Virus record (IMG/VR): IMGVR_UViG_2663763227_000012 | Strand: one strand, 5' to 3' | Origin: a virus | Lineage: Duplodnaviria; Heunggongvirae; Uroviricota; Caudoviricetes | DNA: 20,074 nt | Shown: piece by piece, positions 1,828 through 17,622 of the stretch | Numbering within the stretch: position 1 is the stretch's first letter | How the letters are laid out: every line of letters begins with the position of its first letter | Notes under the pieces: model-generated | The model's database searches: none | What the model saw: the letters and a program-made list of their open reading frames with translations, nothing else | What the model was told of the DNA's origin: nothing | Position numbers and translations under genes: made by a program

Positions 1828-4299
1828 TTAAGAATCAGCCTGACTCGGGATCAGTTTTTGCCAGATAACTGAAACGTATTTTGCCTGGTAACGGGCGTCA
1901 TCAAGTGCATTATGGCGCTCACCTTCGAATGGAATAGCCGTTCTGGCATCGAAGTCTATGGCTTTCCCCAGCTCAACGATTGTGCGTACATCGCGATCGT
2001 TGTAGTAACGCCACGGGCAGGGGATCCCCTGCCGTTCGTATGAACGGCGCAAAATCGTGTTGTCGAAGTTGGCTCCATTTCCCCAAACCTGAACAAAAAA
2101 TTCACCGGAGTTTTCGTCGATAAATTCTCGCAATTGTAACAGTGCATCATCTAACGGGATTTCATCGGTCATAATGGCAGATTGCGCTTCGCGTGATTGC
2201 TTAAGCCACCATTTAATGGTGTCCCGATCAATGACTCCGCCAGCAGTTTCCAGATCGATAGTCTTACTAAATTCCGGTCCCATATCTCCGGTTTGCGGAT
2301 CGAAAAATATTGCACCTATTGAGATGATCGGGGCATCAGGATTTTTTCCCATGGTTTCAAGGTCGATCATTAGATGGTCACACGTCCTGCTGGTGGATGT
2401 GATTTCGTGATGACCGTTCACCTTAATTGGGTGATCTGCCGTCTCGCCAGTTTCATTATCGCTATTGTGATGCTGATTGCCGCCAGTGTTCTCCTTGTGT
2501 GGATGTTCAGCGCCTTCCATTTCCTCCGGATCATCTTCCTGAACTTCAACCTGATACTCTTCATCGAATGTTTCTTGGTATGTTGCGTCGCCCATCACCG
2601 CGCCACAATCAGGGCAGTTGCCGCCGCCGGTCTGACCGCAGGCGGTGCAGACTTTTTCCACTTCCTGTTGCGCTACTGGTTCAGGCTGTTTCGTTTCTGG
2701 CTCGTTTTGTAACGCATTTGGACTGTTTTGTTCCGCTTTTTGGTAGTTCCGTTCCGATTCATGCTGGTTCTGGTTCACAGAATCGCGGGTCTGGAGCCCC
2801 TTAACCCATTTCGGATCATTCGGGTCACTAATCCCTTCAACAAATTCACCACGTGATGCAGCAAGCAACTTATCGGCGTCAGGCTGGCTGATATTGGCTG
2901 CCTGCATAATTTTGTTTACTTCGTCAGCGGTAACTTTTATCGGCTCTGGTTGTTCTGAATCTTCAGCGGTATCTACATTTTGCGGTAAGCCCGTGTATGT
3001 GCCATTTTTTCGGGCAAAATATTCTTCTTTTGTGATTTCAGTGGCGCCAGCAGCCAGTGCCTTATCCAGACCAGAGAGTTTGTTTGCGCGACCGTATTTT
3101 TCTCCGTCCTTATCTGCGAAGAGGAAATAGAACGGCCCCTCACGCTCTACAGATGGTTCAGCTTCCGGCGCGGTTTCATTTTTTGGGATATCAGATACCT
3201 CAGTTTCCACTGCATCAGTTTGTGTTTCTGATGACTGGAGAACATCAACAGTGCCCAGGTCTGTTTCTTCATTCTCAAACACGCCCTTTGTCGTCAGGTA
3301 TTCGCAGATATATTTGTTCAGTGCTACGGGATCTTTGTGAATGTCGATCGGACGCTCACGGACAAGGCCAAAAATAGTTTGGCGGTCGTAGCGAAGGGCA
3401 TCAGGCTGTTTGCGCATTGATGCCGAGATACGCTTCCAGTCTTCGCGGTCGTTGTCGATAACTTCTTTTTTTGCCCAGCGATGGATGCTGCCGTCAATGT
3501 TTCCGGCATCCACATCACTAGGCCAGAGAGCGTAGGCCAGTTCGTCATCCAGTGTTTTCCATGTCTGCTTGTATTCGCGATGAATGGCAGCAATGACCGG
3601 GCTGATTTTTCCTGTTGAATTTTCAGTGTACTGTTGATTGGCTCTGGCGCGGGCGAGATCAACAACAGACGTGTATTTTCCGGTTTCCTTGCGTTCACCT
3701 TCGCGACGTTTTTTCCAGATGCGCATCTCTGCCTGAATTTCGGGCCATTTGGCACCAGGCTTACATTTATGCTTAACCCACCCGATGGCATGCAGCTTAA
3801 GCTCCGGATACATGGCGTTAACTTCTGGCATTTTCATCAACGCTTCAACGATATGTCCGTCGAATGTTGCCATGTCTTCCTGCAACAATTCCTGCGCGCT
3901 AATCACCATATCAACGGTGATGTTTTCACATGTGTCGAACTTAACCATGACAGCGTTCTGTACTTCAGGGGCCAGCTTGTCAAAAGTGACGTTCATCGGA
4001 TCGGATTCAGTCTCAACCGGGACAAAAGAAGCAGACTCCTCATCCCAGCGGTTTTCCTGCATATATTCAGCATCCCATGAATCGAGGGCAGGGCGGGGTA
4101 TGCCAGGTTTATCCTCGCAGACAATAAATTTATAAGCGCAGTCCTGAGCAGCCGGATAATGTTCCAGGAATTGCCAGTGAAATTTTGCTCGAGCACGGCG
4201 TTCGTCGCCAGCTTCAATGGCTGTGGCTACAGCCACAGCGCCTTCTTCCCTTGTTGCCAGTTCGTCAGGAATAGCGGCGCAAATAAAGACTTTACTCAT
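1828..4299 (-). CDS. Large prophage protein with C-terminal DnaQ-like DEDDh 3'-5' exonuclease domain and a CxxC-x7-CxxC zinc ribbon
   Basis: ORF 1828..4335 (track starts at a TTG); I prefer the ATG at 4299 (MSKVFICAAIPDE...), which has a GAGG about 10 nt upstream. Exo I (MIDLETMG), Exo II (VWGNGANFD) and Exo III (HNALDDARY) motifs lie in the last ~185 aa (nt ~1831-2390). Zinc ribbon VCTACGQTGGGNCPDCG at nt ~2599-2655. N-terminus resembles the K-12 Qin ydfE fragment from memory. Confidence 0.75.
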   Translation of the reverse strand: MSKVFICAAIPDELATREEGAVAVATAIEAGDERRARAKFHWQFLEHYPAAQDCAYKFIVCEDKPGIPRPALDSWDAEYMQENRWDEESASFVPVETESDPMNVTFDKLAPEVQNAVMVKFDTCENITVDMVISAQELLQEDMATFDGHIVEALMKMPEVNAMYPELKLHAIGWVKHKCKPGAKWPEIQAEMRIWKKRREGERKETGKYTSVVDLARARANQQYTENSTGKISPVIAAIHREYKQTWKTLDDELAYALWPSDVDAGNIDGSIHRWAKKEVIDNDREDWKRISASMRKQPDALRYDRQTIFGLVRERPIDIHKDPVALNKYICEYLTTKGVFENEETDLGTVDVLQSSETQTDAVETEVSDIPKNETAPEAEPSVEREGPFYFLFADKDGEKYGRANKLSGLDKALAAGATEITKEEYFARKNGTYTGLPQNVDTAEDSEQPEPIKVTADEVNKIMQAANISQPDADKLLAASRGEFVEGISDPNDPKWVKGLQTRDSVNQNQHESERNYQKAEQNSPNALQNEPETKQPEPVAQQEVEKVCTACGQTGGGNCPDCGAVMGDATYQETFDEEYQVEVQEDDPEEMEGAEHPHKENTGGNQHHNSDNETGETADHPIKVNGHHEITSTSRTCDHLMIDLETMGKNPDAPIISIGAIFFDPQTGDMGPEFSKTIDLETAGGVIDRDTIKWWLKQSREAQSAIMTDEIPLDDALLQLREFIDENSGEFFVQVWGNGANFDNTILRRSYERQGIPCPWRYYNDRDVRTIVELGKAIDFDARTAIPFEGERHNALDDARYQAKYVSVIWQKLIPSQADS

Positions 4300-4391
4300 T
4301 TGTTTTAACCTCATGACAGATTTAAGGATGAACAAATCCCTGCCATTGTTGGCATATAAGAATGAAACCGGATATTTATTACGGAACTGTT

Positions 4392-4583
4392 TTAAAGACC
4401 TGCCGGGATTTCGATATTATCCTGGTGAATAACTTTATCGACCGGGTAACAGTTACCGGGAATTTTCTGTTCGGTTGCTGCAGTCATACACTCCTGCATT
4501 GTCCTGTGAACACTGACTGCAATATCAACTGGCTCTCCGGAAACAAGAAAAACTGTCAGAACAAGCACAAATGCTGAATTCAT
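4392..4583 (-). CDS. ydfD: YdfD-like small secreted/membrane lysis protein
   Basis: 63 aa from internal Met (MNSAFVLVLTVFLVSGEPVD...), hydrophobic N-terminus. Overlaps the dicB stop by 4 nt; matches Qin YdfD as recalled. Confidence 0.8.
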   Translation of the reverse strand: MNSAFVLVLTVFLVSGEPVDIAVSVHRTMQECMTAATEQKIPGNCYPVDKVIHQDNIEIPAGL

Positions 4584-4768
4584 TGTGCACATCCTTTTGG
4601 CATCAGACGTAAACGAGCCAGCATTGAAACAATGCATATTTTATTTAATAGCTCCCGTTCTTGTTTTCTCTTGTTAATGGCATCTTCAGTAAATACTGGG
4701 TTACTGATAGTGACACCAATTTCAAAACAACCTTCAGACGTATTAACGTTTGGTAATAACGTTTTCAT
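4580..4768 (-). CDS. dicB: Cell-division inhibitor DicB
   Basis: 62 aa from internal Met of the 97-aa ORF (MKTLLPNVNTSEGCFEIGVTISNPVFTEDAINKRKQERELLNKICIVSMLARLRLMPKGCAQ). Sequence and position match DicB. Confidence 0.85.
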   Translation of the reverse strand: MKTLLPNVNTSEGCFEIGVTISNPVFTEDAINKRKQERELLNKICIVSMLARLRLMPKGCAQ

Positions 4769-4937
4769 TATCGCGTCCTCAACAATGAATTTTGTGATGC
4801 AGTGCCTGGTGCCTCCAGGTGACGTTAACCAGTTAACAATTAACGCCGGATACAGAGAATCCACCCATAACACTGTTTTTGGTTTTAACTGTTCCGCGTG
4901 CGCTTAGCCGCATTCACTGCATCACAAAATTCACTTT

Positions 4938-4995
4938 AAAAAGGGCGGCAGAGCAGTCACGGAGTAAAACTGATACCGCCAAACGTCACCAGAAA
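4938..4995 (-). ncRNA. dicF: DicF small regulatory RNA (ftsZ-targeting sRNA)
   Basis: Reverse complement of 4938-4995 reads TTTCTGGTGACGTTTGGCGGTATCAGTTTTACTCCGTGACTGCTCTGCCGCCCTTTTT, the DicF sequence with its terminal GC stem and U-tail. Lies between ydfC and dicB as in Qin. Confidence 0.85.
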
Positions 4996-5335
4996 ATTGA
5001 TAACAGAGGGCGTTGCAGCGGGGTTGTCACTTAAGCGTATGGTCAACCTGACAACCCGGTGTCCTCAACGGGGAAGGAATAACCCCGCCATACTTACCGC
5101 CGCGCCATTTCGCGGGTTGCCACAACCGGAAGCGCACGGTCGACGAAAATTTAACGACAGGCTATCTATGAACCAGCTACCTCGCCGTGCGCTTTCGCGT
5201 TATGGTCTGACTTTTCAGGGAAATATCCTTTCAGTAAACTGTCAGTTCCGGATGCGCACCCGTGTCCGGCGCACGCACTCCACCTCACCCGTGGAGAACT
5301 CCTTAATTACTAACCTTAGCTTTGTTGATTAGCTA

Positions 5336-5554
5336 CTAACGCGGGTATGTAATCATTCTGGCAATGCTTAATGCCGCTGCTTTTTCCAGATTGGTGATAT
5401 CCTGCTCCAGAGCGGACAGATTTTCAGCCTGCTTAGCCCTGGCTTCATTGGCCCATTTCAGATCCTGCGCTGCATTAATTTTCTGGCGCATCCACTCATA
5501 AAGTTCATCATCGGTATAGTCTGGCGCGATGATGACGGGTTCTCGTTTCTGCAT
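5336..5554 (-). CDS. ydfC: YdfC-like small protein of the dicB operon
   Basis: 72-aa ORF (MQKREPVIIAPDYTDDELYEWMRQKINAAQDLKWANEARAK...), same strand and order as the Qin dicB operon. Confidence 0.75.
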   Translation of the reverse strand: MQKREPVIIAPDYTDDELYEWMRQKINAAQDLKWANEARAKQAENLSALEQDITNLEKAAALSIARMITYPR

Positions 5555-5583
5555 ACTGATTCCTCGCGGTGCTGTTTCGCTTA

Positions 5584-5712
5584 TCAGCCGTTAGATTTTG
5601 CCGAACTGGAAAGCGCCTGTTTAAACTCACTGAAGCTGAGAGCTTCTTCGCCTTCGGCAAGGCCTTCGAAGTATTCTTCGTAAGCCTTTTCCATGATTGT
5701 GTCGAAATCCAT
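5584..5712 (-). CDS. ydfB: YdfB-like small acidic protein
   Basis: Hand-translated 42-aa ORF (MDFDTIMEKAYEEYFEGLAEGEEALSFSEFKQALSSSAKSNG), below the track cutoff. The track ORFs 5508..5717 and 5569..5766 overlap it in other frames. Confidence 0.7.
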   Translation of the reverse strand: MDFDTIMEKAYEEYFEGLAEGEEALSFSEFKQALSSSAKSNG

Positions 5713-5713
5713 A

Positions 5714-5869
5714 TCACTCACCTGAGTTTCTTTCCAGCCAGCGACGGGCACCATTTTCGGTTTTAAACGTTTTGCTTTTGGTATACGTCATTGCGGTGAA
5801 CGTGCCGTCCTGGTTTGGAAACACGCCGTACACCAGAGATTCGTTGTTGCCAAGATCGATAGTATCCAT
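5714..5869 (-). CDS. ydfA: YdfA-like small protein
   Basis: 51 aa from internal Met of ORF 5714..5947 (MDTIDLGNNESLVYGVFPNQDGTFTAMTYTKSKTFKTENGARRWLERNSGE). First gene after the promoter region downstream of dicA. Confidence 0.7.
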   Translation of the reverse strand: MDTIDLGNNESLVYGVFPNQDGTFTAMTYTKSKTFKTENGARRWLERNSGE

Positions 5870-5949
5870 GCTGACCTCATTTCCCCTTAACGCTGGGGTA
5901 GCGGAACTGTTTGCTGAGAACACCGTGCGGTGTGTTGATGCAAACAAGA

Positions 5950-6035
5950 TTAGCCATGACTAACATATCGGTCAAGTGATTTTGTATGCTATAGCTAACA
6001 TAATTGATGTGGTAAAAGATAACTCATTGATGATG
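5950..6035 (-). promoter_or_regulatory. Candidate promoter/operator region of the dicB operon
   Basis: Intergenic between the dicA stop (6036) and the ydfA start (5869). Contains TGACTAACAT (5957-5966) and TAGCTAACAT (5992-6001), related to the palindromes in the dicA-dicC intergenic region, plus a hairpin AGATAAC-N11-GTTATCT (6017-6041) overlapping the dicA stop. Confidence 0.35.
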
Positions 6036-6443
6036 TTATCTTTTATTTGTCCGCTGACGGGCTTTTAGTAATTCTTCAAAGAGTTTATTGAAGTTTTTTA
6101 CTCGAGCTCGCATTTCGGCGAGCTGGGTATCCTGTTCTGATTCTGGCAGTGCATTAAACAGCTCAAGGAGCTCTAGTTCTTTGGGGGATAAGGCAACTGG
6201 CTTCTCAACAGGTGGTGTTGGTTGCTTGTCTTCATCGCCAAATAGAATCCATGTTGGTGAGCATTGCAATACTTTGCTGAGGGCAAAAAGGTTCTTCCCT
6301 GTAGGTTCACTATCACCCCGTTCCCATTGTGATACAGACACATGGGAGATTTTCAGGGCTTTAGCAAGAGACCTTTGGGTGTGTTTGAGGTTTTTCCGAC
6401 GATACCTGATGCGTTCGCCGATAGTTAAATTTTTTGTTTCCAT
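6036..6443 (-). CDS. dicA: Prophage repressor DicA (HTH_XRE, c2/cI-like)
   Basis: 135-aa ORF (METKNLTIGERIRYRRKNLKHTQRSLAKALKISHVSVSQWERGDSEPT...) with an N-terminal HTH, divergent from dicC. Confidence 0.9.
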   Translation of the reverse strand: METKNLTIGERIRYRRKNLKHTQRSLAKALKISHVSVSQWERGDSEPTGKNLFALSKVLQCSPTWILFGDEDKQPTPPVEKPVALSPKELELLELFNALPESEQDTQLAEMRARVKNFNKLFEELLKARQRTNKR

Positions 6444-6526
6444 AGTTAGCTAATGCTAAATCGTATTGACTATGTTTTTGTTAACATCTATCTTGTTAGT
6501 TATGACTAACAATAAAGGTGTTTTAA
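6444..6526. promoter_or_regulatory. Divergent dicA/dicC promoter-operator region
   Basis: 83-bp intergenic region with palindrome TTAGCTAA (6446-6453) and a perfect 8-bp inverted repeat TTGTTAGT-tatg-ACTAACAA (6493-6512), plus a TTGACT hexamer near 6469. Confidence 0.55.
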
Positions 6527-6757
6527 ATGCTTAAAACTGACGCTCTTTTGTATTTCGGTTCAAAAACAAAACTTGCACAAGCAGCAGGTATTCGTTTGGC
6601 TTCGCTTTATAGCTGGAAAGGGGATTTAGTTCCCGAAGGTCGCGCGATGCGTCTACAGGAGGCATCTGGCGGGGAGCTTCAGTATGATCCCAAAGTTTAT
6701 GATGAATATCGTAAGACGAAGCGGGCGGGGCGGTTGAACAATGAAAATCACTCCTGA
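6527..6757 (+). CDS. dicC: Cro-like regulator DicC
   Basis: 76-aa ORF (MLKTDALLYFGSKTKLAQAAGIRLASLYSWKGDLVPEGRAMRLQEASGGELQYDPKVYDEYRKTKRAGRLNNENHS), divergent from dicA. Confidence 0.85.
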   Translation: MLKTDALLYFGSKTKLAQAAGIRLASLYSWKGDLVPEGRAMRLQEASGGELQYDPKVYDEYRKTKRAGRLNNENHS

Positions 6758-7262
6758 ACAGGCTCGTGAGGCTCTGGATGCCTGGATATGTCGACCAGGA
6801 ATGACACAGGAGCAGGCGACGATATTAATCACTGAAGCATTCTGGGCTTTGAAAGAGCGCCCGAACATCGATGTTCAGCGTGTCACATATGAAGGTGGCG
6901 CGATTGATCAGCGAGCGCTTGGCGTTAATCGAGTGAAGATATTTGAACGCTGGAAGGCTATCGACACCAGGGATAAGCGTGAAAAGTTCACGGCGCTAGT
7001 GCCTGCAATTATGGAGGCTATCCGGATTAATGATTTCAGGTTGTATCGTGAAATTACTGACGGAAAAAGCATCACGTGCATGATCGCCGGGTTAAACAAA
7101 GAATATGGCGATGTGGTGGAGTCCGGACTGCTTTTTGCTGATCCTGCCGTAGTGGATCGTGAAACTGACGAACTTATAGAAAAAGCAATTGCTTTCAAAC
7201 TTGCGTATCGACAGCAATACCAACAAAAAGCTGGATGGAATTATGAGCCTTCTTTTTGCTGA
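6741..7262 (+). CDS. YdaT-like early protein (CII-position regulator family)
   Basis: 173-aa ORF overlapping the dicC 3' end. The central segment (ERWKAIDTRDKREKFTALVPAIMEAI) resembles the conserved core of Rac YdaT as recalled. Confidence 0.6.
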   Translation: MKITPEQAREALDAWICRPGMTQEQATILITEAFWALKERPNIDVQRVTYEGGAIDQRALGVNRVKIFERWKAIDTRDKREKFTALVPAIMEAIRINDFRLYREITDGKSITCMIAGLNKEYGDVVESGLLFADPAVVDRETDELIEKAIAFKLAYRQQYQQKAGWNYEPSFC

Positions 7263-8208
7263 ACGCCCACTGGTTATAAACACGCAGCTGGCAATGAAAA
7301 TTGGCTTAAACGAAGCCATTGTTTTGCAACAACTGCACTACTGGTTGAGAGATACCAACTCCGGCATGGAATGTGATGGTGTTCGCTGGATTTATAACAC
7401 AACGGAACAATGGCTGGAACAGTTCCCATTCTGGTCAGAGTCAACGTTAAAGCGCGCGTTTGCAAGTCTGAAAACGCTGGGGCTTTTGCGTTGTGAAAAG
7501 CTCAATAAATCAAAGCGCGATATGACCAATTTCTACACGATCAACTATGGGAGCGAGCTTTTAGATGGTGGCAAATTGAGCGAATCCATCGGTTCAAAAT
7601 GCGCCGCTCCATCAGGTCAAAATGACACGATGGAAGAGGTCAAAATGAAACGCTCCATTGGTTCAAAACGACCCAATGTCATCGGGTCAAAATGGCCTGA
7701 TGATCTTACAGAGAATACAACAGAGATTACTACAGAGAATAAAAACACTTTTCGTCCGGAAGCTTCGCAACCGGACCCGCAGACGACTGAACAGGATTTT
7801 TTAACCCGGAACTCCGACGCGGTTGTGTTTAGTGCGAAAAAACGCCAGTGGGGTAGCAGGGAGGATTTGGCGTGTGCGCAGTGGATCTGGGGGCGGATCG
7901 TGGGTCTCTACGAACAGGCAGCCAGTGATGATGGCGAGATCATGCGACCAAAAGAGCCTAACTGGACTGCCTGGGCCAATGACGTGCGCACAATGCGGAT
8001 GCTGGATGGCAGAAGCCACAGACAAATTTGCGAAATGTTTGGTCGGGTTCAGCGAGATCCATTCTGGGTAAAAAACATCATGAGCCCGTCAAAGCTCCGC
8101 GAAAAATGGGACGAACTGGTCATCCGCCTGGGACGTTCACCTGTACAGCGTTGTGTTAATCATATTTCTGAACCGGATACAGAAATTCCGCCTGGTTTCA
8201 GAGGATAA
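7243..8208 (+). CDS. Phage replication initiator / replisome-organizer-like protein (O-like)
   Basis: ORF 7189..8208; I prefer the ATG at 7243 (MSLLFAERPLVINTQLAMKIGLNEAIVLQQLHYWLRD...), which gives a winged-helix-like N-terminal domain. Internal iteron array and position after the cro/cII-like genes support an initiator role. Confidence 0.6.
   Translation: MSLLFAERPLVINTQLAMKIGLNEAIVLQQLHYWLRDTNSGMECDGVRWIYNTTEQWLEQFPFWSESTLKRAFASLKTLGLLRCEKLNKSKRDMTNFYTINYGSELLDGGKLSESIGSKCAAPSGQNDTMEEVKMKRSIGSKRPNVIGSKWPDDLTENTTEITTENKNTFRPEASQPDPQTTEQDFLTRNSDAVVFSAKKRQWGSREDLACAQWIWGRIVGLYEQAASDDGEIMRPKEPNWTAWANDVRTMRMLDGRSHRQICEMFGRVQRDPFWVKNIMSPSKLREKWDELVIRLGRSPVQRCVNHISEPDTEIPPGFRG
7588..7694 (+). 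repeat. Five direct iteron-like repeats (consensus ~ATCGGGTCAAAATG) at ~23-bp spacing, candidate ori
   Basis: Copies at 7588-7601, 7611-7624, 7636-7647, 7657-7670 and 7681-7694 inside the initiator gene (seen as repeated IGSK in the protein). Confidence 0.55.
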
Positions 8209-8248
8209 GTGTTGATTTCAGGTCATGAGGTAATTTTAAGGGGGACTT

Positions 8249-8671
8249 GTGGCAAAAGTTTTTACACAAGAAGAGCGGGAAAAAATTAAATGGCAGGTGG
8301 TGGAACTCGTGCGCCAGAGCGGCCGTGAGACGTTACGGCAACTGGAAGCTAAAACAGGTGCGACTAGATATCTGATGAGCGTTCTTGCCAGAGAGCTGGT
8401 AGCCAGTGGCGATGTATACAACTCCGGCTACGGGTTATTCCCCTCTGAACAGGCGCGTAAGGACTGGCAAAACGCCCGCAAAAAACTCTCGAGGGCAAAG
8501 GTGAAGAAACCTGCTGTGGTTGATCCGGACCTTATCTGGTCATCACCTGACGGAGAAATACGTCGCTACGACAGTCGCCTAAACATAATCTGTCGCGAGT
8601 GCCGGAAGAGCGAAGTTATGCAGCGCATACTGGCTTTCTATCAGGGTAATTTTCAGGACGTGGCGCAGTGA
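8249..8671 (+). CDS. Hypothetical prophage protein, possible HTH
   Basis: 140-aa ORF with GTG start at 8249 preceded by GGGGG. Segment ETLRQLEAKTGATRYLMSVLARELV looks HTH-like. Stop overlaps the next gene's GTG start (GTGA at 8668-8671). Confidence 0.5.
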   Translation: MAKVFTQEEREKIKWQVVELVRQSGRETLRQLEAKTGATRYLMSVLARELVASGDVYNSGYGLFPSEQARKDWQNARKKLSRAKVKKPAVVDPDLIWSSPDGEIRRYDSRLNIICRECRKSEVMQRILAFYQGNFQDVAQ

Positions 8672-9024
8672 GTGCACCGGCAACCATTCTTGATATGTGC
8701 TGTGGCAGCCGCATGTTCTGGTTCGATAAGTCTGACGAACGGGCGATATTCAGCGATATCAGAAAAGAAGGATACACATTACGCAATGGGAGACGCTTGA
8801 TTATCAGCCCTGACATTATCGCAGATTTTCGTGCATTATCATTTGCAGACGCATCTTTTTCGATGGTTGTATTAGACCCTCCGCATCTTGAGAGTGTTGG
8901 TGATAACGCCTGGATGGGAAAGAAATATGGACGGCTGAATAAAGATGCCTGGCGTGATGATTCGCGACAGAGATTTAAAGAAGCCTTTCGGGTGTTGAGG
9001 CCGCACGGCGTTCTGATTTTTTAA
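8668..9024 (+). CDS. N6-adenine DNA methyltransferase-like protein, short and probably truncated
   Basis: 118 aa with SAM motif I-like DMCCGS and motif IV DPPH (VVLDPPHL), plus a RVLRPHGVLIF strand typical of class I MTases. Too short for a complete MTase fold; the frame stays open 30 codons past the TAA at 9022-9024. Confidence 0.55.
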   Translation: MSAPATILDMCCGSRMFWFDKSDERAIFSDIRKEGYTLRNGRRLIISPDIIADFRALSFADASFSMVVLDPPHLESVGDNAWMGKKYGRLNKDAWRDDSRQRFKEAFRVLRPHGVLIF

Positions 9025-10137
9025 TGGAATGAAACGCAAATACCGGTAAGCCAGATTCTGGCACTGACAGACAGAAAACCTGTTATCTGTCAACGAACAG
9101 GGAAAAAACGATAAAACCCACTGGATTATTTTTATGAAAGAGGCATCCAGTGAGTAGATTCGTAAGGCTACAGATACGTATATCTGAATAATTAAATTCA
9201 GTTCTGTAAATAAAATTTAATCCTTAACCGGATGGATTTCTGCACCCTCAGAACATCAGGAGGCCGCCCGAAAGGGCGGTAGTGAAATGCGAAAGTTCAA
9301 AATTATTATTGAAACGGGAATAGCTGGTGGAGATTTTGAGGATGTATTCGAAGTGGACGATGACGCAACACCTGAGGAAATTCATGACGGAGCATAAGAA
9401 ATTTTCTTTAACTACTGCAATTACTCATACCACGAAATAAAAGACGATGAGGAAGAACAAAGTGGCTGATTTTTGTTCAGCTAAATATAACATCAGTTTT
9501 GAAGAGCGGGATGAACTATTAATGGACTATGGTGAGTTACGCGGTGGAAGTGCTGCTGATGTCGAATCCTAGCGTGATGACTATGAAGCGGGAAAAACTC
9601 CGGTCGAAGCATATTGTGATGAGTGGGGCGATGAATGAGCGAGATTAATTATCAGGAAGGGCATGAAACGGCGGGGCAAGCAAAACCAGTGGCATGGCGA
9701 TATCGCTACGTGAAAAAAGGCGTTACGGACTTTCAGGGGAAGTAGTGGTCTGGTGACTGGAAATATGTACCGAAAAAAGAGGATTGTAACGACAGGCCGA
9801 ACTATCAAATTCAGGCCTTATTCACTGCCTCACCAGTCCCAGTTACATCAGAAGAACTGGTTAAAGCTGTGCACTTTTATGAACAACTAAAACGCGAAAA
9901 TCCACCAACATCCGGCAACTAGATTAATGGATTAACTATGTCGGTTAAACGACCAGCCAACTGAAAAAGCGGAAACCTGATTACAGGTTGCCAGATAAGG
10001 CAATGAGCTACCTGGCGCGGAACGGACTGATAAGTATGGGGAATGTTTTACGATGAACCTTTAGACTAAAGAGTTTGTAACGCTATGTAAGTGATTTTTT
10101 CTGGTTTAGATATTTATATGTCCGGCCAAATTGAGGT
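9025..10137. other. AT-rich decayed accessory segment with several gene-like frames each broken by an in-frame stop
   Basis: 9288-9470 (MRKFKIIIETGIAGGDFEDVFEVDDDATPEEIHDGA-TAA-EIFFNYCNYSYHEIKDDEEEQSG), 9490-9637 (in-frame TAG at 9569-9571) and 9635-9921 (MSEINYQEGHETAGQAKPVAWRYRYVKKGVTDFQGK-TAG-WSGDWKYVPKKEDC...). No ORF over 60 aa on the plus strand. Confidence 0.4.
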
Positions 10138-10176
10138 GTGTTTAAATGTAATTGCACATTGATTGTAGGAGGAATA

Positions 10177-10356
10177 ATGAAAAACGCATTGCAGTTTTTG
10201 TTTGTTGCGTTCTGGTTGTTCGCATCATGTATGCCCATCATCTTCACAGCAAGGTATATGGAAAAAGTTGATGTTTTGATATTAATATTTGGATATATAA
10301 ATGCCCTTTTTTTAGGGGTGTTCATGGCGGTCATGTGCATTGAATACTGGCGGTAA
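10177..10356 (+). CDS. Small hydrophobic (predicted two-TM) membrane protein
   Basis: 59 aa from ATG 10177 (MKNALQFLFVAFWLFASCMPIIFTARYMEKVDVLILIFGYINALFLGVFMAVMCIEYWR) with canonical AGGAGG 5 nt upstream. Lies in an AT-rich island. Confidence 0.45.
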   Translation: MKNALQFLFVAFWLFASCMPIIFTARYMEKVDVLILIFGYINALFLGVFMAVMCIEYWR

Positions 10357-10690
10357 ATACAGCGAACTCCATTGGTTTAGTTGGATATTTACTGTGCTGG
10401 ACAAAAACGGTTTGCGGGGAAATCTTAGTTAAGTAGAATGACTGCGGGTGCTTGAGGCTATCTGCCTCGGGCATGGACACCAACGGCAGATAGAGAAAAG
10501 CCCCAGTTAACATTACGCGTCCTGCAAGACGCTTAACATTAATCTGAGGCCAATTTCATGCTAGACACATGTAGGTTAGCCTCTTACGTGCCGAAAGGCA
10601 CGGAGAAGCAGGCTATTGTTAACACCAAGCTGTAATGTCCCCTTTGAACCATTCTAAAATGTCCCCAGACAATTCTCTGGGGGATTTTTC

Positions 10691-12004
10691 ATGATCAAAG
10701 AGACTGTTACGATGAGTCATAAGGAACTCCACCGACTTCAGATTATTCAGGAACAAGCTGCGGCACGCATTGGCATTTCTATTCGGCAGGTTAAACGTCT
10801 GGTGCAACGGTATAGAAATGAAGGGCCTTCTGGTCTGGTTTCCCACCGACGTGGAAAGCGTCCTAATAATTCCTTTTCTACTGAATTCAGAGCAACAGTA
10901 ATTTCACTCCTCAAAGGCCGTTACGCTGATTTTGGACCTACGTTTGCGTGCGAAAAATTGCGCGAGATACACGGTTTATCTTTATCCGTTGAAACTCTCA
11001 GAAAGTGGATGATAGAAGAGGGGTTATGGCGTGAACGCCGTCGTAAAATTGCCCGTATATATCAACGCCGCATGCGACGACCATCTTACGGTGAACTGAT
11101 CCAGATTGATGGCTCACCTCATGACTGGTTTGAAAATCGAGGCCCCAGATGTACACTGATCGTTTTCATTGATGATGCCACCAGTGCGTTGATGGCGTTG
11201 CGTTTTGTGCCTGCTGAAACAACCCGGGCTTACATGGAAACCCTCCGGGGTTACCTTAATGATCATGGCGTACCGCTCGCTCTCTACTCTGATAGACACA
11301 GTATATTCAGGGTAAATAACCCAGAGCGGGAAGGTGAGCTGACCCAGTTCACTCGTGCGATAAAGACACTGGGCATCGAGCCAATCCATGCCAACAGCCC
11401 GCAGGCAAAAGGGCGGGTAGAGCGCGCCAATCAGACACTACAGGACAGGCTGGTCAAAGAAATGCGGCTTCAGAATATCAGTGATATTGAAACAGCAAAT
11501 GCATGGTTGCCGACCTTTATTGAAGCCTATAACAACCGGTTCGCTACGTCGCCTCGTACTACTGATAATGCTCATCTTGATGTGCACCATTCTGAAGAGG
11601 AACTGGGTTATATCTTCAGCCTACAGGCGAAGCGCGTTCTGTCTAAAAATCTCACTTTCCAGTACAAAAGCAGTGCGTTTCAGGTACGCAGTGAGGGCCG
11701 GGGATATCGACTTAGGCATTCGGTTGTTACTGTATGCGAGAACTTTGACGGTGAAATTAACGTTCTGTATGACGGGAAAGCGCTGGGCTGGGAAAAGTAT
11801 GTTGATGGCCCGGAGCCTATACCACTGGATGATGAAAAGAGTGTCCATGAACGAGTGGATAATGCCCGTATTGATTTACGCTCAAAATACTATGTTAAAC
11901 CTAAAGCTGACCATCCCTGGCTTACGCGCCGAACGCAAAGTCATCAGCAAGTTAAGCCCCCGAAGTTACCTAAAAAGAAGCCTGATCCCGATAAAAAAGA
12001 TTGA
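10691..12004 (+). CDS. DDE transposase/integrase-core (rve) protein with N-terminal HTH, IS481/ISNCY-like
   Basis: 437-aa ORF: N-terminal HTH (IGISIRQVKRLVQRY), then an rve-type catalytic core (IQIDGSPHDW...TLIVFIDDATS...GRVERANQTLQD) and a basic C-terminal tail. Element boundaries not resolved. Confidence 0.8.
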   Translation: MIKETVTMSHKELHRLQIIQEQAAARIGISIRQVKRLVQRYRNEGPSGLVSHRRGKRPNNSFSTEFRATVISLLKGRYADFGPTFACEKLREIHGLSLSVETLRKWMIEEGLWRERRRKIARIYQRRMRRPSYGELIQIDGSPHDWFENRGPRCTLIVFIDDATSALMALRFVPAETTRAYMETLRGYLNDHGVPLALYSDRHSIFRVNNPEREGELTQFTRAIKTLGIEPIHANSPQAKGRVERANQTLQDRLVKEMRLQNISDIETANAWLPTFIEAYNNRFATSPRTTDNAHLDVHHSEEELGYIFSLQAKRVLSKNLTFQYKSSAFQVRSEGRGYRLRHSVVTVCENFDGEINVLYDGKALGWEKYVDGPEPIPLDDEKSVHERVDNARIDLRSKYYVKPKADHPWLTRRTQSHQQVKPPKLPKKKPDPDKKD

Positions 12005-12399
12005 AACCAAGATCGATTCGGTTGAGTGCATATCCATTCATAGGGTAGATTCTTAAGTCGCGTTTCTGGTGTTCATTTTCGGGTGGTTTGTTACTTGTTT
12101 TACCGGGGATATGCCAGAAACGCGCTGAGTCAGTCTGGGCGGTGCGCGTAATGAGGCGTTATGGTAAATAGCCTATGCTAATGTCCGCTAAGAGCAAGAA
12201 GCGGAAGTTGGCAGTTTTGTGGACTGTCCCCACAAAAGTGACTACAGAAATAGTTGCAATTCATAATTGATCATGGGTTGTCAGTTAAACTCGTGGCGAT
12301 TTAAATAGACTAATTGGGAGTGCGTCCATTACTTATATCTTGTAATGTTAACTATCAGAAATGATACAAAGATAATATGTCTTTAAAGAAAAGGCTGAT

Positions 12400-12427
12400 G
12401 GCGAAAAGTGGCCCGATGAGGGCCACA
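12400..12427 (-). terminator. Intrinsic terminator downstream of flxA
   Basis: Hairpin GTGGCCC-gatgag-GGCCAC (12408-12426) followed on the minus strand by a T-run. Confidence 0.5.
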
Positions 12428-12440
12428 ATACGGCTGTCAC

Positions 12441-12773
12441 TTAGACGTAAATATCAATGGTGCCAGCGGTATTTGTATCGTCTTTTTTCTCTTCTTTTTT
12501 ATCAGGCTGAACTGTCGCGTCTTCATTCTTTTTCTCTGCCTGCTGCCTTAACAACTGCTCCAGTTGAGCCCAGAGGCTTTCAATTTGCTTTTGTACCAAT
12601 GCAGCCATTTCTTTTTTCTGCTGTGTCGTCATCCCCTCTTCCGATGAGATTTTCCCAAGCTTTTCAGTCAGCACCTGAATTTGTCTTGTGATTTTGGCTA
12701 TTTCTGATGTTCCTTCCGGGGCGGAGTTGTTTGAAATAACGGTTGAGGTATTTCCCTGAATTGTGACAGACAT
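12441..12773 (-). CDS. flxA: FlxA (sigma-28-dependent Qin prophage protein)
   Basis: 110-aa ORF (MSVTIQGNTSTVISNNSAPEGTSEIAKITRQIQVLTEKLGKISSEEGMTTQQKKEMAALVQKQIESLWAQLEQLL...) matching FlxA as recalled. Confidence 0.85.
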   Translation of the reverse strand: MSVTIQGNTSTVISNNSAPEGTSEIAKITRQIQVLTEKLGKISSEEGMTTQQKKEMAALVQKQIESLWAQLEQLLRQQAEKKNEDATVQPDKKEEKKDDTNTAGTIDIYV

Positions 12774-12796
12774 AGATTTCTCCTTTTAAAAAAACA

Positions 12797-12824
12797 CTAT
12801 CGGCATGCACAAAAAAATCTTTAA
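12797..12824 (-). promoter_or_regulatory. Sigma-28 (FliA) class-3 promoter for flxA
   Basis: Minus strand reads TTAAAG-N15-GCCGATA (-35 at 12819-12824, -10 at 12798-12804), close to the FliA consensus TAAA-N15-GCCGATAA, about 25 nt upstream of the flxA start. Confidence 0.6.
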
Positions 12825-12975
12825 TCGTATTTCTTGTGTCATTAATTGTTTGATGTTCAGATTGTTTTCCTCGCGGGCTGGCGCGCCTCAGAAAGTAAAG
12901 CTTGTTGACAGGGGTAAACGTTCGGCAATAATTTTCTGCCGCATGCGGGTGTTGCATAAAACGTGTTACGTTCCT

Positions 12976-13281
12976 TTATCGACAGGTCAGGTCACCGCTC
13001 ACCCGCCGACGAGAAAGCAACACTGACATGCTAAAGCAAAAAATAGATGAATAAGTTGAGTTGTGCATATGTAGCCTGACCGTCACAAAGTATATGGTGT
13101 CTGTACCAGTAAGATGATGGCCGGACTCTTTAAAAACGAGCTGACCTGCACAATACAGGATGGACTTAGCAATGGCTGCTCCTGGCACAAAGCGGACAGT
13201 GATCACCGTTCTTACGACTACTTTCTGACTTCCTTCGTGACTTGCCCTAAGCATGTTGTAGTGCGATACTTGTAATGACAT
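12976..13281 (-). CDS. ydfV: YdfV-like hypothetical protein
   Basis: 101-aa ORF between flxA and relB, same position and length as Qin ydfV. Unusual composition, so it may not be a real protein. Confidence 0.45.
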   Translation of the reverse strand: MSLQVSHYNMLRASHEGSQKVVVRTVITVRFVPGAAIAKSILYCAGQLVFKESGHHLTGTDTIYFVTVRLHMHNSTYSSIFCFSMSVLLSRRRVSGDLTCR

Positions 13282-13294
13282 TTGTAATTACAAG
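13269..13294 (+). promoter_or_regulatory. relO-like operator in the relBE promoter
   Basis: CTTGTAAT-gacat-TTGTAATTACAAG: inverted and direct TTGTAAT hexads immediately upstream of the relB start. Confidence 0.6.
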
Positions 13295-13305
13295 AGGTGT
13301 AAGAC

Positions 13306-13545
13306 ATGGGTAGCATTAACCTGCGTATTGACGATGAACTTAAAGCGCGTTCTTACGCCGCGCTTGAAAAAATGGGTGTAACTCCTTCTGAAGCGCTTCG
13401 TCTCATGCTCGAGTATATCGCTGACAATGAACGCTTGCCGTTCAAACAGACACTCCTGAGTGATGAAGATGCTGAACTTGTGGAGGTAGTGAAAGAACGG
13501 CTTCGTAATCCTAAGCCAGTACGTGTGACGCTGGATGAACTCTGA
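13306..13545 (+). CDS. relB: RelB antitoxin
   Basis: 79-aa ORF (MGSINLRIDDELKARSYAALEKMGVTPSEALRLMLEYIADNERLPFKQTLLSDEDAELVEVVKERLRNPKPVRVTLDEL), near-identical to E. coli RelB as recalled. Confidence 0.9.
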   Translation: MGSINLRIDDELKARSYAALEKMGVTPSEALRLMLEYIADNERLPFKQTLLSDEDAELVEVVKERLRNPKPVRVTLDEL

Positions 13546-13832
13546 TGGCGTATTTTCTGGATTTTGACGAGCGGGCACTAAAGGAATGGCGAAAGCTGGG
13601 CTCGACGGTACGTGAACAGTTGAAAAAGAAGCTGGTTGAAGTACTTGAGTCACCCCGGATTGAAGCAAACAAGCTCCGTGGTATGCCTGATTGTTACAAG
13701 ATTAAGCTCCGGTCTTCAGGCTATCGCCTTGTATACCAGGTTATAGACGAGAAAGTTGTCGTTTTCGTGATTTCTGTTGGGAAAAGAGAACGCTCGGAAG
13801 TATATAGCGAGGCGGTCAAACGCATTCTCTGA
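13545..13832 (+). CDS. relE: RelE toxin (ribosome-dependent mRNA interferase)
   Basis: 95-aa ORF (MAYFLDFDERALKEWRKLGSTVREQLKKKLVEVLESPRIEANKLRGMPDCYKIKLRSSGYRLVYQVIDEKVVVFVISVGKRERSEVYSEAVKRIL). Start overlaps the relB stop (ATGA). Confidence 0.9.
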   Translation: MAYFLDFDERALKEWRKLGSTVREQLKKKLVEVLESPRIEANKLRGMPDCYKIKLRSSGYRLVYQVIDEKVVVFVISVGKRERSEVYSEAVKRIL

Positions 13833-13903
13833 ACCAAAGCATGACATCTCTGTTTCGCACCGAAGGTGACACTTCTGCTTTGCGTTGACAGGAGAAGCAG
13901 GCT

Positions 13904-14059
13904 ATGAAGCAGCAAAAGGCGATGTTAATCGCCCTGATCGTCATCTGTTTAACCGTCATAGTGACGGCACTGGTAACGAGGAAAGACCTCTGCGAGGTAC
14001 GAATCCGAACCGGCCAGACGGAGGTCGCTGTCTTCACAGCTTACGAACCTGAGGAGTAA
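13904..14059 (+). CDS. hokD: Hok-family membrane toxin HokD (RelF)
   Basis: Hand-translated 51-aa ORF (MKQQKAMLIALIVICLTVIVTALVTRKDLCEVRIRTGQTEVAVFTAYEPEE), below the track cutoff. GGAGAAG RBS; third gene after relBE. Confidence 0.85.
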   Translation: MKQQKAMLIALIVICLTVIVTALVTRKDLCEVRIRTGQTEVAVFTAYEPEE

Positions 14060-14127
14060 GAGACCCGGCGGGGGAGAAATCCCTCGCCACCTCTGATGTG
14101 GCAGGCATCCTCAACGCACCCGCACTT

Positions 14128-14158
14128 AACCCGCTTCGGCGGGTTTTTGTTTTTATTT
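14128..14158 (+). terminator. Rho-independent terminator after hokD
   Basis: CCCGC-ttcg-GCGGG stem (14130-14143) followed by TTTTTGTTTTTATTTT. Confidence 0.7.
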
Positions 14159-14275
14159 TCAACGCGTTTGAAGTTCTGGACGGTGCCGGAATAGAATCAA
14201 AAATACTTAAGTAGCGCGCAGGGATAAGAGGGATGGTCCCTTAAAGGGGAGAGCTAATTATCCGGAAGGATTCTG

Positions 14276-14527
14276 ATGATGAACATCGAAGAACTGCGTA
14301 AAATTTTTTGTGAAGATGGCCTCTATGCTGTGTGCGTTGAAAATGGAAATCTTGTTAGTCATTACCGCATTATGTGTTTGCGAAAGAATGGGGCTGCGTT
14401 AATTAATTTTGTGGATGCTCGGGTCACGGACGGATTTATCTTGCGCGAAGGTGAGTTTGTCACTTCATTACAGGCATTGAAAGAGATCGGAATAAAAGCT
14501 GGCTTTTCTGCTTTTTCAGGAGAATAA
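14276..14527 (+). CDS. rem: Rem-like small prophage protein
   Basis: 83-aa ORF (MMNIEELRKIFCEDGLYAVCVENGNLVSHYRIMCLRKNGAALINFVDARVTDGF...), matching Qin Rem in length and position after hokD. Confidence 0.6.
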   Translation: MMNIEELRKIFCEDGLYAVCVENGNLVSHYRIMCLRKNGAALINFVDARVTDGFILREGEFVTSLQALKEIGIKAGFSAFSGE

Positions 14528-14593
14528 ACTCATCTACAATCTTGCGCGGGGCTGAACTCCCGCTGAGTAACACCGTGCCACCGGAGAAAACCG

Positions 14594-14872
14594 ATGGCAC
14601 GCAACGCAAAATATTACAATTCTGATAATTCGCCCGTTCTTGCCTGCACGCACGGGCGGTATTCTCACGCATTCAAGTCTGAATGGTTCCAGCACCCTCC
14701 ATGCACTGCAGAACAGGCCGAATGGCTGATTCATTCTTACCGCAGGCGCGGGTTCGAGGTTAAGAAAGCTCTCAGTCTCGACTATCGGCACTGGATAATC
14801 TCTGTCAGGCTGCCTTATTCCGAACGCCCACCACGTGCGTCCCGCACTTTCCAGCAACGGATCTGGAGGTAA
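14594..14872 (+). CDS. Hypothetical protein (Cys/His-containing)
   Basis: 92-aa ORF with GGAG RBS before ATG 14594. Its stop (14870-14872) lies 1 nt before the GTG start of the DUF968-like gene. Confidence 0.5.
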   Translation: MARNAKYYNSDNSPVLACTHGRYSHAFKSEWFQHPPCTAEQAEWLIHSYRRRGFEVKKALSLDYRHWIISVRLPYSERPPRASRTFQQRIWR

Positions 14873-14873
14873 C

Positions 14874-15875
14874 GTGCGGGTATTACTTAGACCTGTTCTG
14901 GTGCCTGAGCTTGGGCTGGTGGTCCTTAAGCCGGGCCGTGAATCCATACAGATATTTCATAATCCTCGAGTGCTGGTGGAACCGGAACCAAAAAGCATGC
15001 GTAATCTGCCATCCGGAGTCGTTCCTGCCGTTCGCCAGCCGCTGGCGGAAGACAAAACATTGCTGCCGTTTTTTAGTAACGAACGGGTGATTCGTGCTGC
15101 TGGCGGCGTTGGCGCATTGTCCGACTGGCTATTACGTCATGTTACATCCTGCCAGTGGCCTAATGGCGATTACCATCACACTGAAACAGTCATTCACCGT
15201 TATGGTACCGGCGCAATGGTGTTGTGCTGGCACTGCGACAACCAACTGCGTGACCAGACATCGGAATCACTGGAGCTGCTTGCTCAACAAAATCTGACAG
15301 CATGGGTGATTGACGTCATCCGTCACGCAATAAGCGGTACGCAGGAGCGGGAATTATCTTTGGCTGAATTATCCTGGTGGGCGGTCTGCAATCAGGTGGT
15401 GGATGCACTACCTGAGGCTGTATCGCGTCGTTCGCTGGGATTACCAGCGGAAAAAATCTGCTCGGTGTACCGCGAAAGCGACATCGTACCGGGAGAGCAG
15501 ACCGCCACCAGCATATTGAAACAACGCACAAAAAATCTTGCACCGTTGCCTTACGCCCACCAGCAACAAAAATCACCACAGGAAAAGACGGTGGTAAGCA
15601 TCACCGTTGATCCAGAGTCTCCGGAATCTTTCATGAAGCTGCCTAAACGTCGCCGCTGGGTTAAGGAGAAATACACACGTTGGGTTAAGACACAGCCGTG
15701 TGCTTGCTGCGGTATGCCAGCCGACGATCCGCATCATCTGATTGGTCACGGGCAGGGCGGAATGGGAACAAAAGCACATGATCTCTTTGTGTTGCCTTTG
15801 TGCAGAAAGCATCACAACGAGCTGCATACGGATACAGTGGCATTTGAAGATAAGTATGGCTCCCAACTGGACTGA
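14874..15875 (+). CDS. ydfU: DUF968/YdfU-like protein with C-terminal HNH-like Cys/His motif
   Basis: ORF 14835..15875 in the track; I prefer the GTG at 14874 because GGAGG sits 4 nt upstream. C-terminus CACCGMPADDPHHLIGHGQGGMGTKAHDLFVLPLCRKHHNELH is HNH-nuclease-like. Confidence 0.65.
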   Translation: MRVLLRPVLVPELGLVVLKPGRESIQIFHNPRVLVEPEPKSMRNLPSGVVPAVRQPLAEDKTLLPFFSNERVIRAAGGVGALSDWLLRHVTSCQWPNGDYHHTETVIHRYGTGAMVLCWHCDNQLRDQTSESLELLAQQNLTAWVIDVIRHAISGTQERELSLAELSWWAVCNQVVDALPEAVSRRSLGLPAEKICSVYRESDIVPGEQTATSILKQRTKNLAPLPYAHQQQKSPQEKTVVSITVDPESPESFMKLPKRRRWVKEKYTRWVKTQPCACCGMPADDPHHLIGHGQGGMGTKAHDLFVLPLCRKHHNELHTDTVAFEDKYGSQLD

Positions 15876-15935
15876 TATTTCGTTTTATCGATCGCGCGCT
15901 GGCAATTGGCGTACTGGCGTAAGTGGAGAACGAGC

Positions 15936-16688
15936 ATGAACCTTGAAGCCTTACCAAAATATTACTCCCCAAAATCTCCAAAATTGAGCGATGACGCTCC
16001 AGCGACAGGCACCGGTTGTTTAACAATTACGGATGTAATGGCAGCGCAGGGGATGGTGCAGTCGAAAGCACCACTTGGGTTGGCCTTATTTCTGGCAAAA
16101 GTTGGTGTTCAGGACCCTCAGTTTGCGATTGAAGGCCTGCTAAATTACGCGATGGCACTGGATAACCCGACATTGAACAAATTGAGTGAAGAAATCCGGT
16201 TACAGATTATTCCTTACCTCGTGAGTTTTGCCTTTGCTGATTACTCCAGGTCTGCGGCAAGTAAGGCTCGCTGTGAGCATTGTTCAGGTACGGGATTTTA
16301 TAATGTATTGCGCGAAGTGGTGAAACACTACAGACGCGGGGAATCTGTAATCAAGGAAGAATGGGTGAAGGAACTATGTCAGCATTGCCATGGTAAGGGC
16401 GAAGCCAGCACAGCGTGCAGAGGGTGTAAGGGTAAAGGGATTGTTCTGGATGAAAAAAGAACCCGGTTTCATGGCGTACCGGTATATAAGATTTGTGGGC
16501 GTTGTAATGGAAACCGGTTTAGTCGTTTACCGACCACGCTGGCACGACGTCATGTCCAGAAGCTGGTACCAGACCTGACCGATTATCAGTGGTATAAGGG
16601 GTATGCGGACGTCATTGGTAAACTGGTAACAAAGTGCTGGCAGGAAGAAGCATACGCGGAAGCGCAATTGAGGAAGGTGACGAGATAA
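15936..16688 (+). CDS. quuQ: Late-gene antiterminator Q
   Basis: 250 aa from ATG 15936 (MNLEALPKYY...), GGAG 8 nt upstream. Cys-rich zinc-binding region (CEHCSGTG...CQHCHGKG...CRGCKGKG...CGRCNGN) typical of the 82/DLP12-type Q family. Confidence 0.8.
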   Translation: MNLEALPKYYSPKSPKLSDDAPATGTGCLTITDVMAAQGMVQSKAPLGLALFLAKVGVQDPQFAIEGLLNYAMALDNPTLNKLSEEIRLQIIPYLVSFAFADYSRSAASKARCEHCSGTGFYNVLREVVKHYRRGESVIKEEWVKELCQHCHGKGEASTACRGCKGKGIVLDEKRTRFHGVPVYKICGRCNGNRFSRLPTTLARRHVQKLVPDLTDYQWYKGYADVIGKLVTKCWQEEAYAEAQLRKVTR

Positions 16689-16793
16689 ATGATTTTTGCT
16701 GAAGATGGCGACATGATGTTTGCATTTTTCAAAAAATATGGATAAAATTTTTTCAACGATGGGCTTTGTATACCCGACGTTAAGAAAAAGTAG

Positions 16794-16824
16794 AAAACCC
16801 GCTGATGAGCGGGTTTTGTGCTTT
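16794..16824. terminator. Bidirectional intrinsic terminator (candidate tR')
   Basis: CCCGC-tgatga-GCGGG stem (16798-16813) flanked by A-run and T-run, so it is T-rich on both strands. About 105 bp downstream of Q. Confidence 0.6.
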
Positions 16825-17109
16825 AAATGGGGCAATGGTAATGTTGAATCTCATCCCGGGACTCATGTCTGTTAACTTATTATTTAGCTGGTGACTTGGT
16901 TATTTGCCTGATGTTTAAAATGTTTTCTTCCAGTACAATGTCCCTAAACACAATGAGTCTGCTTATTATATTATTAGCAGAGCTATTACGGCCAAAGTAC
17001 AGCATAAGCTTTTAAAGCCAATCAACCAGTCATCAAGACAGACGGGGTTATTCATAAAAACTCTCCATGTGTGATCCGATGGGGCCTGAAATTAAAGCTT
17101 TAATATAGC

Positions 17110-17322
17110 TCATGAAAGGTAAACATTGGCAGCTGAAGGGCCACGCAGACCATTTATCCGGCAAAATTCCACGCGTAATCCGGTGGTAATTTCTTCTGCA
17201 TCGCGGAGATTGAGCGCTGAAACATGAAGCTGGACATCGATACGACCATCGGATGGGGTGATAAGACCCTTGCCGCTTTTGCCGTCAAAGGTTTTGACAA
17301 TTCCTGTCATTTTACGGGACAA
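17110..17322 (-). CDS. cspF: Cold-shock-domain protein, CspF/CspH family
   Basis: 70-aa ORF ([70 protein letters not shown]), divergent from cspB. Confidence 0.85.
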
Positions 17323-17622
17323 AAAAATTCCTTAATACTTATAACTTGGCGCACTATACACACGTTCCTGAAGAAAGCTATAGTTTTTTGATGGGGTTGA
17401 AGATGGCTGGATGTCTAAAATAAACATTGCTTCATATGTTCAACTATGCGTTAATGATTGCGTCGGTTTGAAGAACAGACGATATACGAAGTAGTTTACT
17501 AAAGCAGTTCTCATTTCAGGTGTTATTCACTTATTCCTTCTTTGAGTCTCTCCAATTAAGTACGAAGTCGTTTCTGTTATGCAAACCATTTATGCCGAAA
17601 GGCTCAAGTTAAGGAATGTAGA

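Follow-up and report, generated by a model that had tools for sequence, protein, structure and literature searches.

Decay of four adjacent early genes in a Qin-type cryptic prophage of Escherichia coli

The Qin element and its gene order

Qin is a grounded prophage of Escherichia coli that is known for its pseudogenes and insertions, and the disruption of its hokD gene by integration of relBE has already been described (PMC6379469). The DNA considered here is IMG/VR record IMGVR_UViG_2663763227_000012, and "the window" below means the whole stretch of 20,074 nucleotides that was analyzed. By its gene order, its chromosomal site, its dicA/dicC switch and the presence of DicF (from the L001 annotation, Rfam and comparison with MG1655), the element containing the window is identified as a full-length Qin-type cryptic prophage of E. 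coli, that is, a defective, grounded lambdoid prophage. An annotated locus (L001) that is 99.8% identical to positions 1–19399 of the window has in its left part rspB, the integrase, excisionase and exonuclease genes, ydfD, dicB, ydfC/B/A, dicA and dicC; these are followed by a YdaT-family gene, a gene for a 321-aa hypothetical protein, a DUF977 gene, a methyltransferase gene and three genes that are called A, B and C here, and then, in the right part, by an ISNCY transposase gene, ydfW, flxA, ydfV, relBE, hokD, rem, ydfU, ydfT and cspF/B. A 1.8-kb query (window 8600–10400) is matched at 100% identity in many independently sequenced complete E. coli chromosomes. An Rfam scan of the window found DicF (76.7 bits), sok RNA and the cspA thermoregulator, all three outside 9120–10100, and no known RNA inside that interval, and a search of the whole window for tRNA genes found none.

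In K-12 strain MG1655 (L013), everything that corresponds to window positions ∼6740–10700 has been lost between the 5′ part of the YdaT-family gene (ydfX) and ydfW, which forms the downstream edge of the K-12 deletion. This deletion takes out replication-region genes, the DUF977 gene and all four of the pseudogenes described below.

Four adjacent genes at 8668–10056 are disabled in the window, and this very probably reflects mutational decay of lytic-cycle accessory genes in a defective Qin prophage. The original prediction for this stretch had already proposed pseudogenization in a lambdoid prophage, and this is borne out by intact homologs of all four genes and by the RefSeq/PGAP label "internal stop" on genes A and C. 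The features are:

8668–9157, + strand: pseudogene of a YfdM-like orphan DNA methyltransferase (MTase), assigned by alignment with the intact L006 and L008 genes
9264–9281, + strand: putative GC-rich hairpin, GCCGCCC-GAAA-GGGCGG, read from the sequence and from RNA folding
9287–9469, + strand: gene A pseudogene, DUF7167/phrog_1997, a 60-aa acidic protein when intact (homology, alignment)
9462–9638, + strand: gene B pseudogene, phrog_519-like, a 58-aa acidic protein when intact (homology, alignment)
9635–10056, + strand: gene C pseudogene, phrog_660, an Ea22-like mosaic protein of 171 aa when intact (homology, alignment)

The methyltransferase pseudogene

The first of these genes, which the original prediction had taken for a short MTase, is indeed truncated and carries two lesions. 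An AAA (Lys) codon has become TAA at 9022–9024, leaving a stump of 8668–9024, and one extra G in the run at 9100–9102 (GG to GGG) causes a +1 frameshift; with the extra G removed, the frame reads on to ...THWIIFMKEASSE, ending at a TAG at 9155–9157. The intact relatives are 157 aa long in L006, where the gene adjoins yfdP, yfdQ and yfdR, and 164 aa long in L008, where it lies after a DUF977 gene. The MTase matches the profiles phrog_954 "DNA methyltransferase" (4.7e-73), PADLOC MTase_II (2.6e-73) and PADLOC oMTase (3.8e-49), its translation keeps a DPPH motif, and no partner endonuclease lies beside it, its neighbors in the L001 annotation being the DUF977 gene and gene A. On this combination of profile match, motif and absence of an adjacent nuclease it is assigned as a small orphan DNA methyltransferase, which when intact would methylate phage DNA; it is the only one of the four genes that is plausibly restriction-related.

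In L001, PGAP annotates only the 118-aa stump (8668–9024; WP_001310834.1), as an ordinary CDS, and in L005 and L007 it labels the gene "frameshifted; internal stop". RefSeq names the stump protein "class I SAM-dependent methyltransferase" in many genomes. The consequence for annotation is that hundreds of genomes list a 118-aa MTase stump as a normal protein, and do so without gene B.

Genes A, B and C

The three genes that follow the MTase overlap one another. Upstream of gene A, an AGGAGG sequence (9258–9263) is followed directly by the hairpin at 9264–9281, which has a 7-bp GC stem and a GAAA loop, and then by 5 nt to the gene A ATG (9287). Folding of the RNA of 9245–9300 gives −17.4 kcal/mol (z = −2.1). 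The hairpin is conserved in L002–L006, and the arrangement is kept where other genes follow (L006). Looped out, the hairpin would restore a normal spacing between AGGAGG, the putative ribosome-binding site, and the start of gene A.

The gene A frame matches phrog_1997 at 2e-29, it is annotated by PGAP in L001 (9287–9469) as "DUF7167 family protein, internal stop", and an intact A homolog scores 46 bits against PF23768 (DUF7167), for which the Pfam gathering score is 24.4. Its sole internal stop is a TAA at 9395–9397 in place of AAA (Lys37), within a predicted helix. An AF2 model of an intact A protein (P0121) has a pLDDT of 86.6 and consists of a predicted beta-hairpin and then a helix; a comparison of this model with the PDB gave no solved-structure match (best E = 0.41), and the predicted fold resembles only uncharacterized phage proteins, including proteins of phage phAPEC8 and Lactococcus phage 949. 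Remote relatives of A, ∼55 aa long, show the same pattern. A search of 8 million papers did not find the name "DUF7167". In other lineages gene A is broken in various ways, by frameshifts and truncations (P0175, P0178, P0181, P0185 and P0188). Protein P0153, encoded on a metagenome contig (window ∼9377–9400), is a 53-aa variant of the window A allele that is without seven codons ("HDGA*E."); the deletion apparently occurred between two GAAATT repeats and removes the stop in frame.

Gene B matches phrog_519 at 2e-22 and is not annotated by PGAP in L001 (9462–9638). It begins with GTG (9462–9464) where intact homologs have ATG, and its internal stop is a TAG at 9570–9572, a position at which nearly all homologs have TGG (Trp) and one close allele (P0310) has CAG. 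Gene B shares 8 nt with the end of A (ATGGCTGA) and 4 nt with the start of C (ATGA). The TAG lies within a 29-nt patch (9562–9590) that has seven differences from the intact, common allele and flanks that are identical to those of metagenome contig L014. This patch looks like a gene-conversion tract, unlike a set of independent point mutations.

Gene C matches phrog_660 at 2e-74, and PGAP annotates it in L001 (9635–10056) as "hypothetical protein; frameshifted; internal stop". The first stop is a TAG at 9743–9745, where P0030 has TGG with otherwise identical flanks and other homologs have other sense codons, and the second is a CAG to TAG change at 9919–9921. There is also a 90-bp in-frame deletion after 9898, a gap that the intact 141-aa protein P0035 shares; a further deletion, of 4 bp after 9953, shifts the frame, so that reading continues to a TGA at 10054–10056. 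A Glu residue replaces the family's invariant Gly74. The structure model of C is poor (pLDDT 55, pTM 0.32).

The original description of this cluster, at least three acidic small-protein frames each interrupted by a single in-frame stop, therefore needs some revision. It fits A and B, but C has a second premature stop in the TAG at 9919–9921, where the gene had been thought to end naturally. The A frame had been placed one nucleotide off its true position, B starts at 9462 and not at 9490 and ends at 9638, and C runs on to 10056. The intact A and B proteins are acidic (pI 4.1 for each), but the intact C protein is not (pI 7.6).

Intact relatives and operon setting

Uninterrupted homologs, which the original prediction had suggested seeking, were found for all four genes in other E. 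coli prophages, and annotated intact genes are present in L002–L004, L006 and L008–L012. Intact A (60 aa), B (58 aa) and C (171 aa) occur in the same order in diverged prophages (84–94% identity), and these full lengths are the norm for the three families. The same order of intact A, B and C is found in isolated phages, including PhiR42_1, vB_EcoS-640R1 and ArgO145/Stx2a-converting phages, and in the many lambdoid prophages and Stx phages that have them, A and B invariably lie side by side and overlap. The genes belong to the rightward early operon and follow its replication-region genes, with the antiterminator beyond them; in working relatives the order is the DUF977 gene, then the four genes, then hok and the antiterminator gene. 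The overlapping stop and start codons of A, B and C imply that their translation is coupled.

The idea that this is a moron region is not upheld. The A, B and C genes overlap, follow early-operon genes on the same strand and stand in the same order in isolated lambdoid and Stx phages, and a count of promoter-like sites gave 4 where 4.5 were expected, which is no enrichment. Between gene C and the IS there is no terminator-like site that has a T tract. The suggestion of defense cargo fares no better: among A, B, C, a 72-aa ORF and the MTase, PADLOC matched the MTase alone, NCBIfam has no match for A, B or C, their only Pfam match is DUF7167 (gene A), and none of their PHROG families (phrog_1997, phrog_519 and phrog_660) has an assigned function. 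By their arrangement and family matches, A, B and C are best classed as ordinary lambdoid early accessory genes, neither morons nor recognizable defense cargo, and A and B are candidates for screens of small phage early proteins. The GC content of the segment, a comparison that had also been proposed, is only slightly low (0.42, vs 0.46 for the window), and a foreign origin was rejected on that measure since the difference is small.

Distribution of the lesions and recombination

In 526 records the 861-nt segment from A to C is matched at 99% identity or more. Of the allele backgrounds, the one that surrounds the B stop occurs in 506 genomes, as a single chromosomal copy in each, and the one that surrounds the first TAG of C occurs in about 1,156 genomes. 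A search of 5,426 genomes with 61-mers in which the stop had been reverted (for A, B, the MTase and C) gave no exact full-length match, that is, no reverted codon on the same 61-nt background. In L002 and L003, the TAG of C at 9743–9745 and its 90-bp deletion are present together with intact A and B; L002 also has the second TAG and the 4-bp deletion of C, and L003 has deletions there. The occurrence of the C lesion background in ∼1,156 genomes and beside intact A and B genes shows that C decayed earlier or that its decay has spread more widely; the lesions of A, B and the MTase mark one Qin lineage.

The only intact relatives of the exact window allele are recombinants in metagenome contigs. 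Two of these, L014 and L017, have the same Qin context (a 59-aa ORF, the ISNCY transposase gene and flxA), and both keep the C lesions. In L014, which starts at window position 9189, 3′ of the MTase, and is uninformative on its lesions, B is intact by virtue of a replaced 29-nt patch (9562–9590, with the seven differences mentioned above). L017 has the other allele type over 9382–9592, with A and B both intact; it reaches into the MTase and keeps its TAA and frameshift. These patches indicate that lesions are carried or removed by short recombination events, and exchanges on this scale, from some tens of bases up to about two hundred, call for caution when prophage decay is dated.

Timing of the lesions and explanations for them

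The lesions, set against the ancestral codons seen in homologs, comprise AAA to TAA (twice), TGG/CAG to TAG, TGG to TAG, CAG to TAG, a +1 G insertion and a 4-bp deletion. They lie at positions that are sense or in frame in homologs that are intact elsewhere, and they are real and inherited, being present in about 500 genomes. From base composition, A would have one stop or fewer with a probability of 0.08, B with one of 0.09 and C with one of 0.009; identification of these frames as genes is drawn from homology and goes beyond base composition.

Compared with intact alleles, A and B have dN/dS values of 0.12–0.22 at a dS of about 0.4. In the MTase, the window branch has 18 synonymous changes, 17 nonsynonymous changes and one stop, and the intact branches have synonymous to nonsynonymous counts of 11:8 and 10:7. 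The mostly synonymous divergence of A and B, together with an MTase branch that is like the intact branches, points to genes that were functional for most of their divergence and acquired their lesions late, and the lesions are thus judged to be recent relative to the age of the alleles. For gene A, with L012 as outgroup and the alignment read by eye, the window branch has two synonymous, five nonsynonymous and one nonsense change, and the intact clade has six synonymous and one nonsynonymous. The excess of nonsynonymous change on the window branch of A suggests relaxed constraint, as does the loss of the invariant Gly in C. Within the stop-bearing clade the unique polymorphisms are eight synonymous and six nonsynonymous, a ratio that differs from the neutral one, although the numbers are small and all are transitions; several of these polymorphisms are probably imports from intact alleles.

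The preferred explanation is that these genes were no longer needed because the prophage cannot run a lytic cycle and the operon lies behind the DicA/DicC switch. Constraint would have been lost in this defective and repressed state, and disabling point mutations and small indels would have gone unpurged and then become fixed. Where one gene is stopped early, those downstream of it would be expressed less, through lost translational coupling and Rho polarity, so that one change could free the rest from constraint, and short recombination patches would have moved lesions from prophage to prophage. Of random substitutions in these genes, about 4.6% produce a stop codon, and several nonsense changes are thus expected after a few per cent of neutral change. 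Such decay is ordinary and partly known, in that RefSeq/PGAP already flags A and C as pseudogenes; it adds one further example from a well-known defective prophage and has little importance for biology.

Uniform neutral drift may not be the whole story. At least eight lesions are clustered in 1.4 kb, and the only other PGAP pseudogene in the 19.8-kb locus is the IS transposase; the flanking DUF977 gene is intact, yet it is as diverged from other lineages (84–90%). That the segment is simply older than its flanks was rejected, since divergence from other lineages is as great in the DUF977 gene as in A and B. By a rough estimate, the excess of missense changes on the window branch of the MTase, A and B is perhaps 5–10 changes, which predicts less than one nonsense change where three are observed. 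An orphan methyltransferase that leaks from a prophage can harm hosts with methylation-dependent restriction (McrBC, Mrr), and the small acidic products of early phage genes can poison the host or undermine its defenses. The host might accordingly have favored disabling of these genes, each being silenced quickly by its first null mutation, and the concentration of the lesions in these four genes among equally diverged intact neighbors, the finding that A, B and the MTase each have one or two null lesions and are otherwise little decayed, and the many ways in which A is broken in other lineages would all agree with this. We nevertheless consider it unlikely: PADLOC and NCBIfam give no toxicity or defense signal for A, B or C, the enrichment argument draws on three events plus a soft estimate, neutral prophage decay would be just as likely to leave broken copies in many lineages, and a repressed promoter should make the cost in a lysogen small. 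Marginally less probable again is a version in which the MTase and the coupled A and B genes formed a counter-defense or host-takeover module whose leaky cost led the host to disarm it, the null mutations being positively selected soon after Qin was grounded; if that were so, L014 and L017 would owe their repair to continuing exchange with active phages.

It has also been proposed that many in-frame stops in bacterial genes are read through (PMC7918605), and tolerated or read-through stops would allow these genes still to be used at a low level. A and B do have one stop each and are otherwise clean, their dN/dS against intact alleles is low, and the 8:6 polymorphisms of the stop-bearing clade lean the same way. 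Continued use of these genes is nonetheless very improbable, since diverged homologs have sense codons at every stop position, the MTase and C are also frameshifted, the stop in A is a TAA, B has lost its ATG, and divergence from before the stops arose accounts for the low dN/dS. A suppressor tRNA or programmed recoding was rejected as well, given that the window has no tRNA gene and that the homologs carry sense codons. There is virtually no chance that the stops are sequencing or assembly artefacts or that these are genuinely short genes. The stretch is identical in many independently sequenced complete genomes, with the A and B stops shared by ∼500 of them, which excludes sequencing error; outside copies of this one allele the short ends do not recur, diverged homologs read through them, and the full-length forms of 60, 58 and 171 aa are the norm. 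Decay of unneeded lytic-cycle genes thus remains the reading that we favor.

Neighboring features

Several features lie just downstream of the pseudogenes. A 59-aa ORF (10177–10356, + strand) stands behind an AGGAGG and has a hydrophobic product (MKNALQFLFVAFWLF...). It is unannotated by PGAP in L001–L004, is called by gene callers in contigs L014 and L017, and is intact and 98–99.5% identical in L002–L004, as against ∼90% for its flanks. It may be a real gene for a small membrane protein.

A full-length match to sok RNA (104 bits) at 10446–10617 (+ strand) lies just upstream of the ISNCY transposase gene. In uninterrupted relatives (L004) the sok sequence runs straight into hokD, and window position 10616 joins position 13890 in the L004 alignment with a 16-bp overlap. 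This junction implies that the hok regulatory half and the hokD coding sequence lie ∼3.3 kb apart, with the IS, ydfW, flxA, ydfV and relBE between them. The ISNCY/ISEsa1-like transposase ORF (10691–12004, + strand) is open for 437 aa in the window; L005 and L007 differ from it by a 13–14-nt indel at ∼10739–10752, and PGAP calls it "incomplete" in related records.

Comparison with known systems

The MTase resembles the small phage methyltransferases of the YfdM type in its strong profile matches, its DPPH motif and the presence of the same gene in a CPS-53-like context (L006); it differs from them in that the window copy is disabled by a stop and a frameshift and has no adjacent partner endonuclease. 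Intact A falls among the DUF7167 (PF23768) phage proteins, scoring above the family cut-off and having a pattern in common with the ∼55-aa remote relatives, but the window copy is cut at codon 37. Gene C is like the λ Ea22-like mosaic early proteins (relatives of PF13935) in having a conserved core, EGLVKAVRFYEQVKRENPP, in common with proteins annotated as ead/Ea22-like, and in that its family likewise swaps N- and C-terminal modules; the 171-aa form of gene C differs in being without any Pfam match. As a whole, the element shares with the Qin prophage of K-12 its rspB-side neighborhood and the order dicB, DicF, dicA, dicC, flxA, relBE, hokD, rem, ydfU, ydfT and cspB/F, but in MG1655 the stretch between ydfX and ydfW is deleted, leaving dicC-ydfX-ydfW. 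The Qin of the window is thus the fuller version, which ATCC 8739 also has, along with about 500 further complete genomes.
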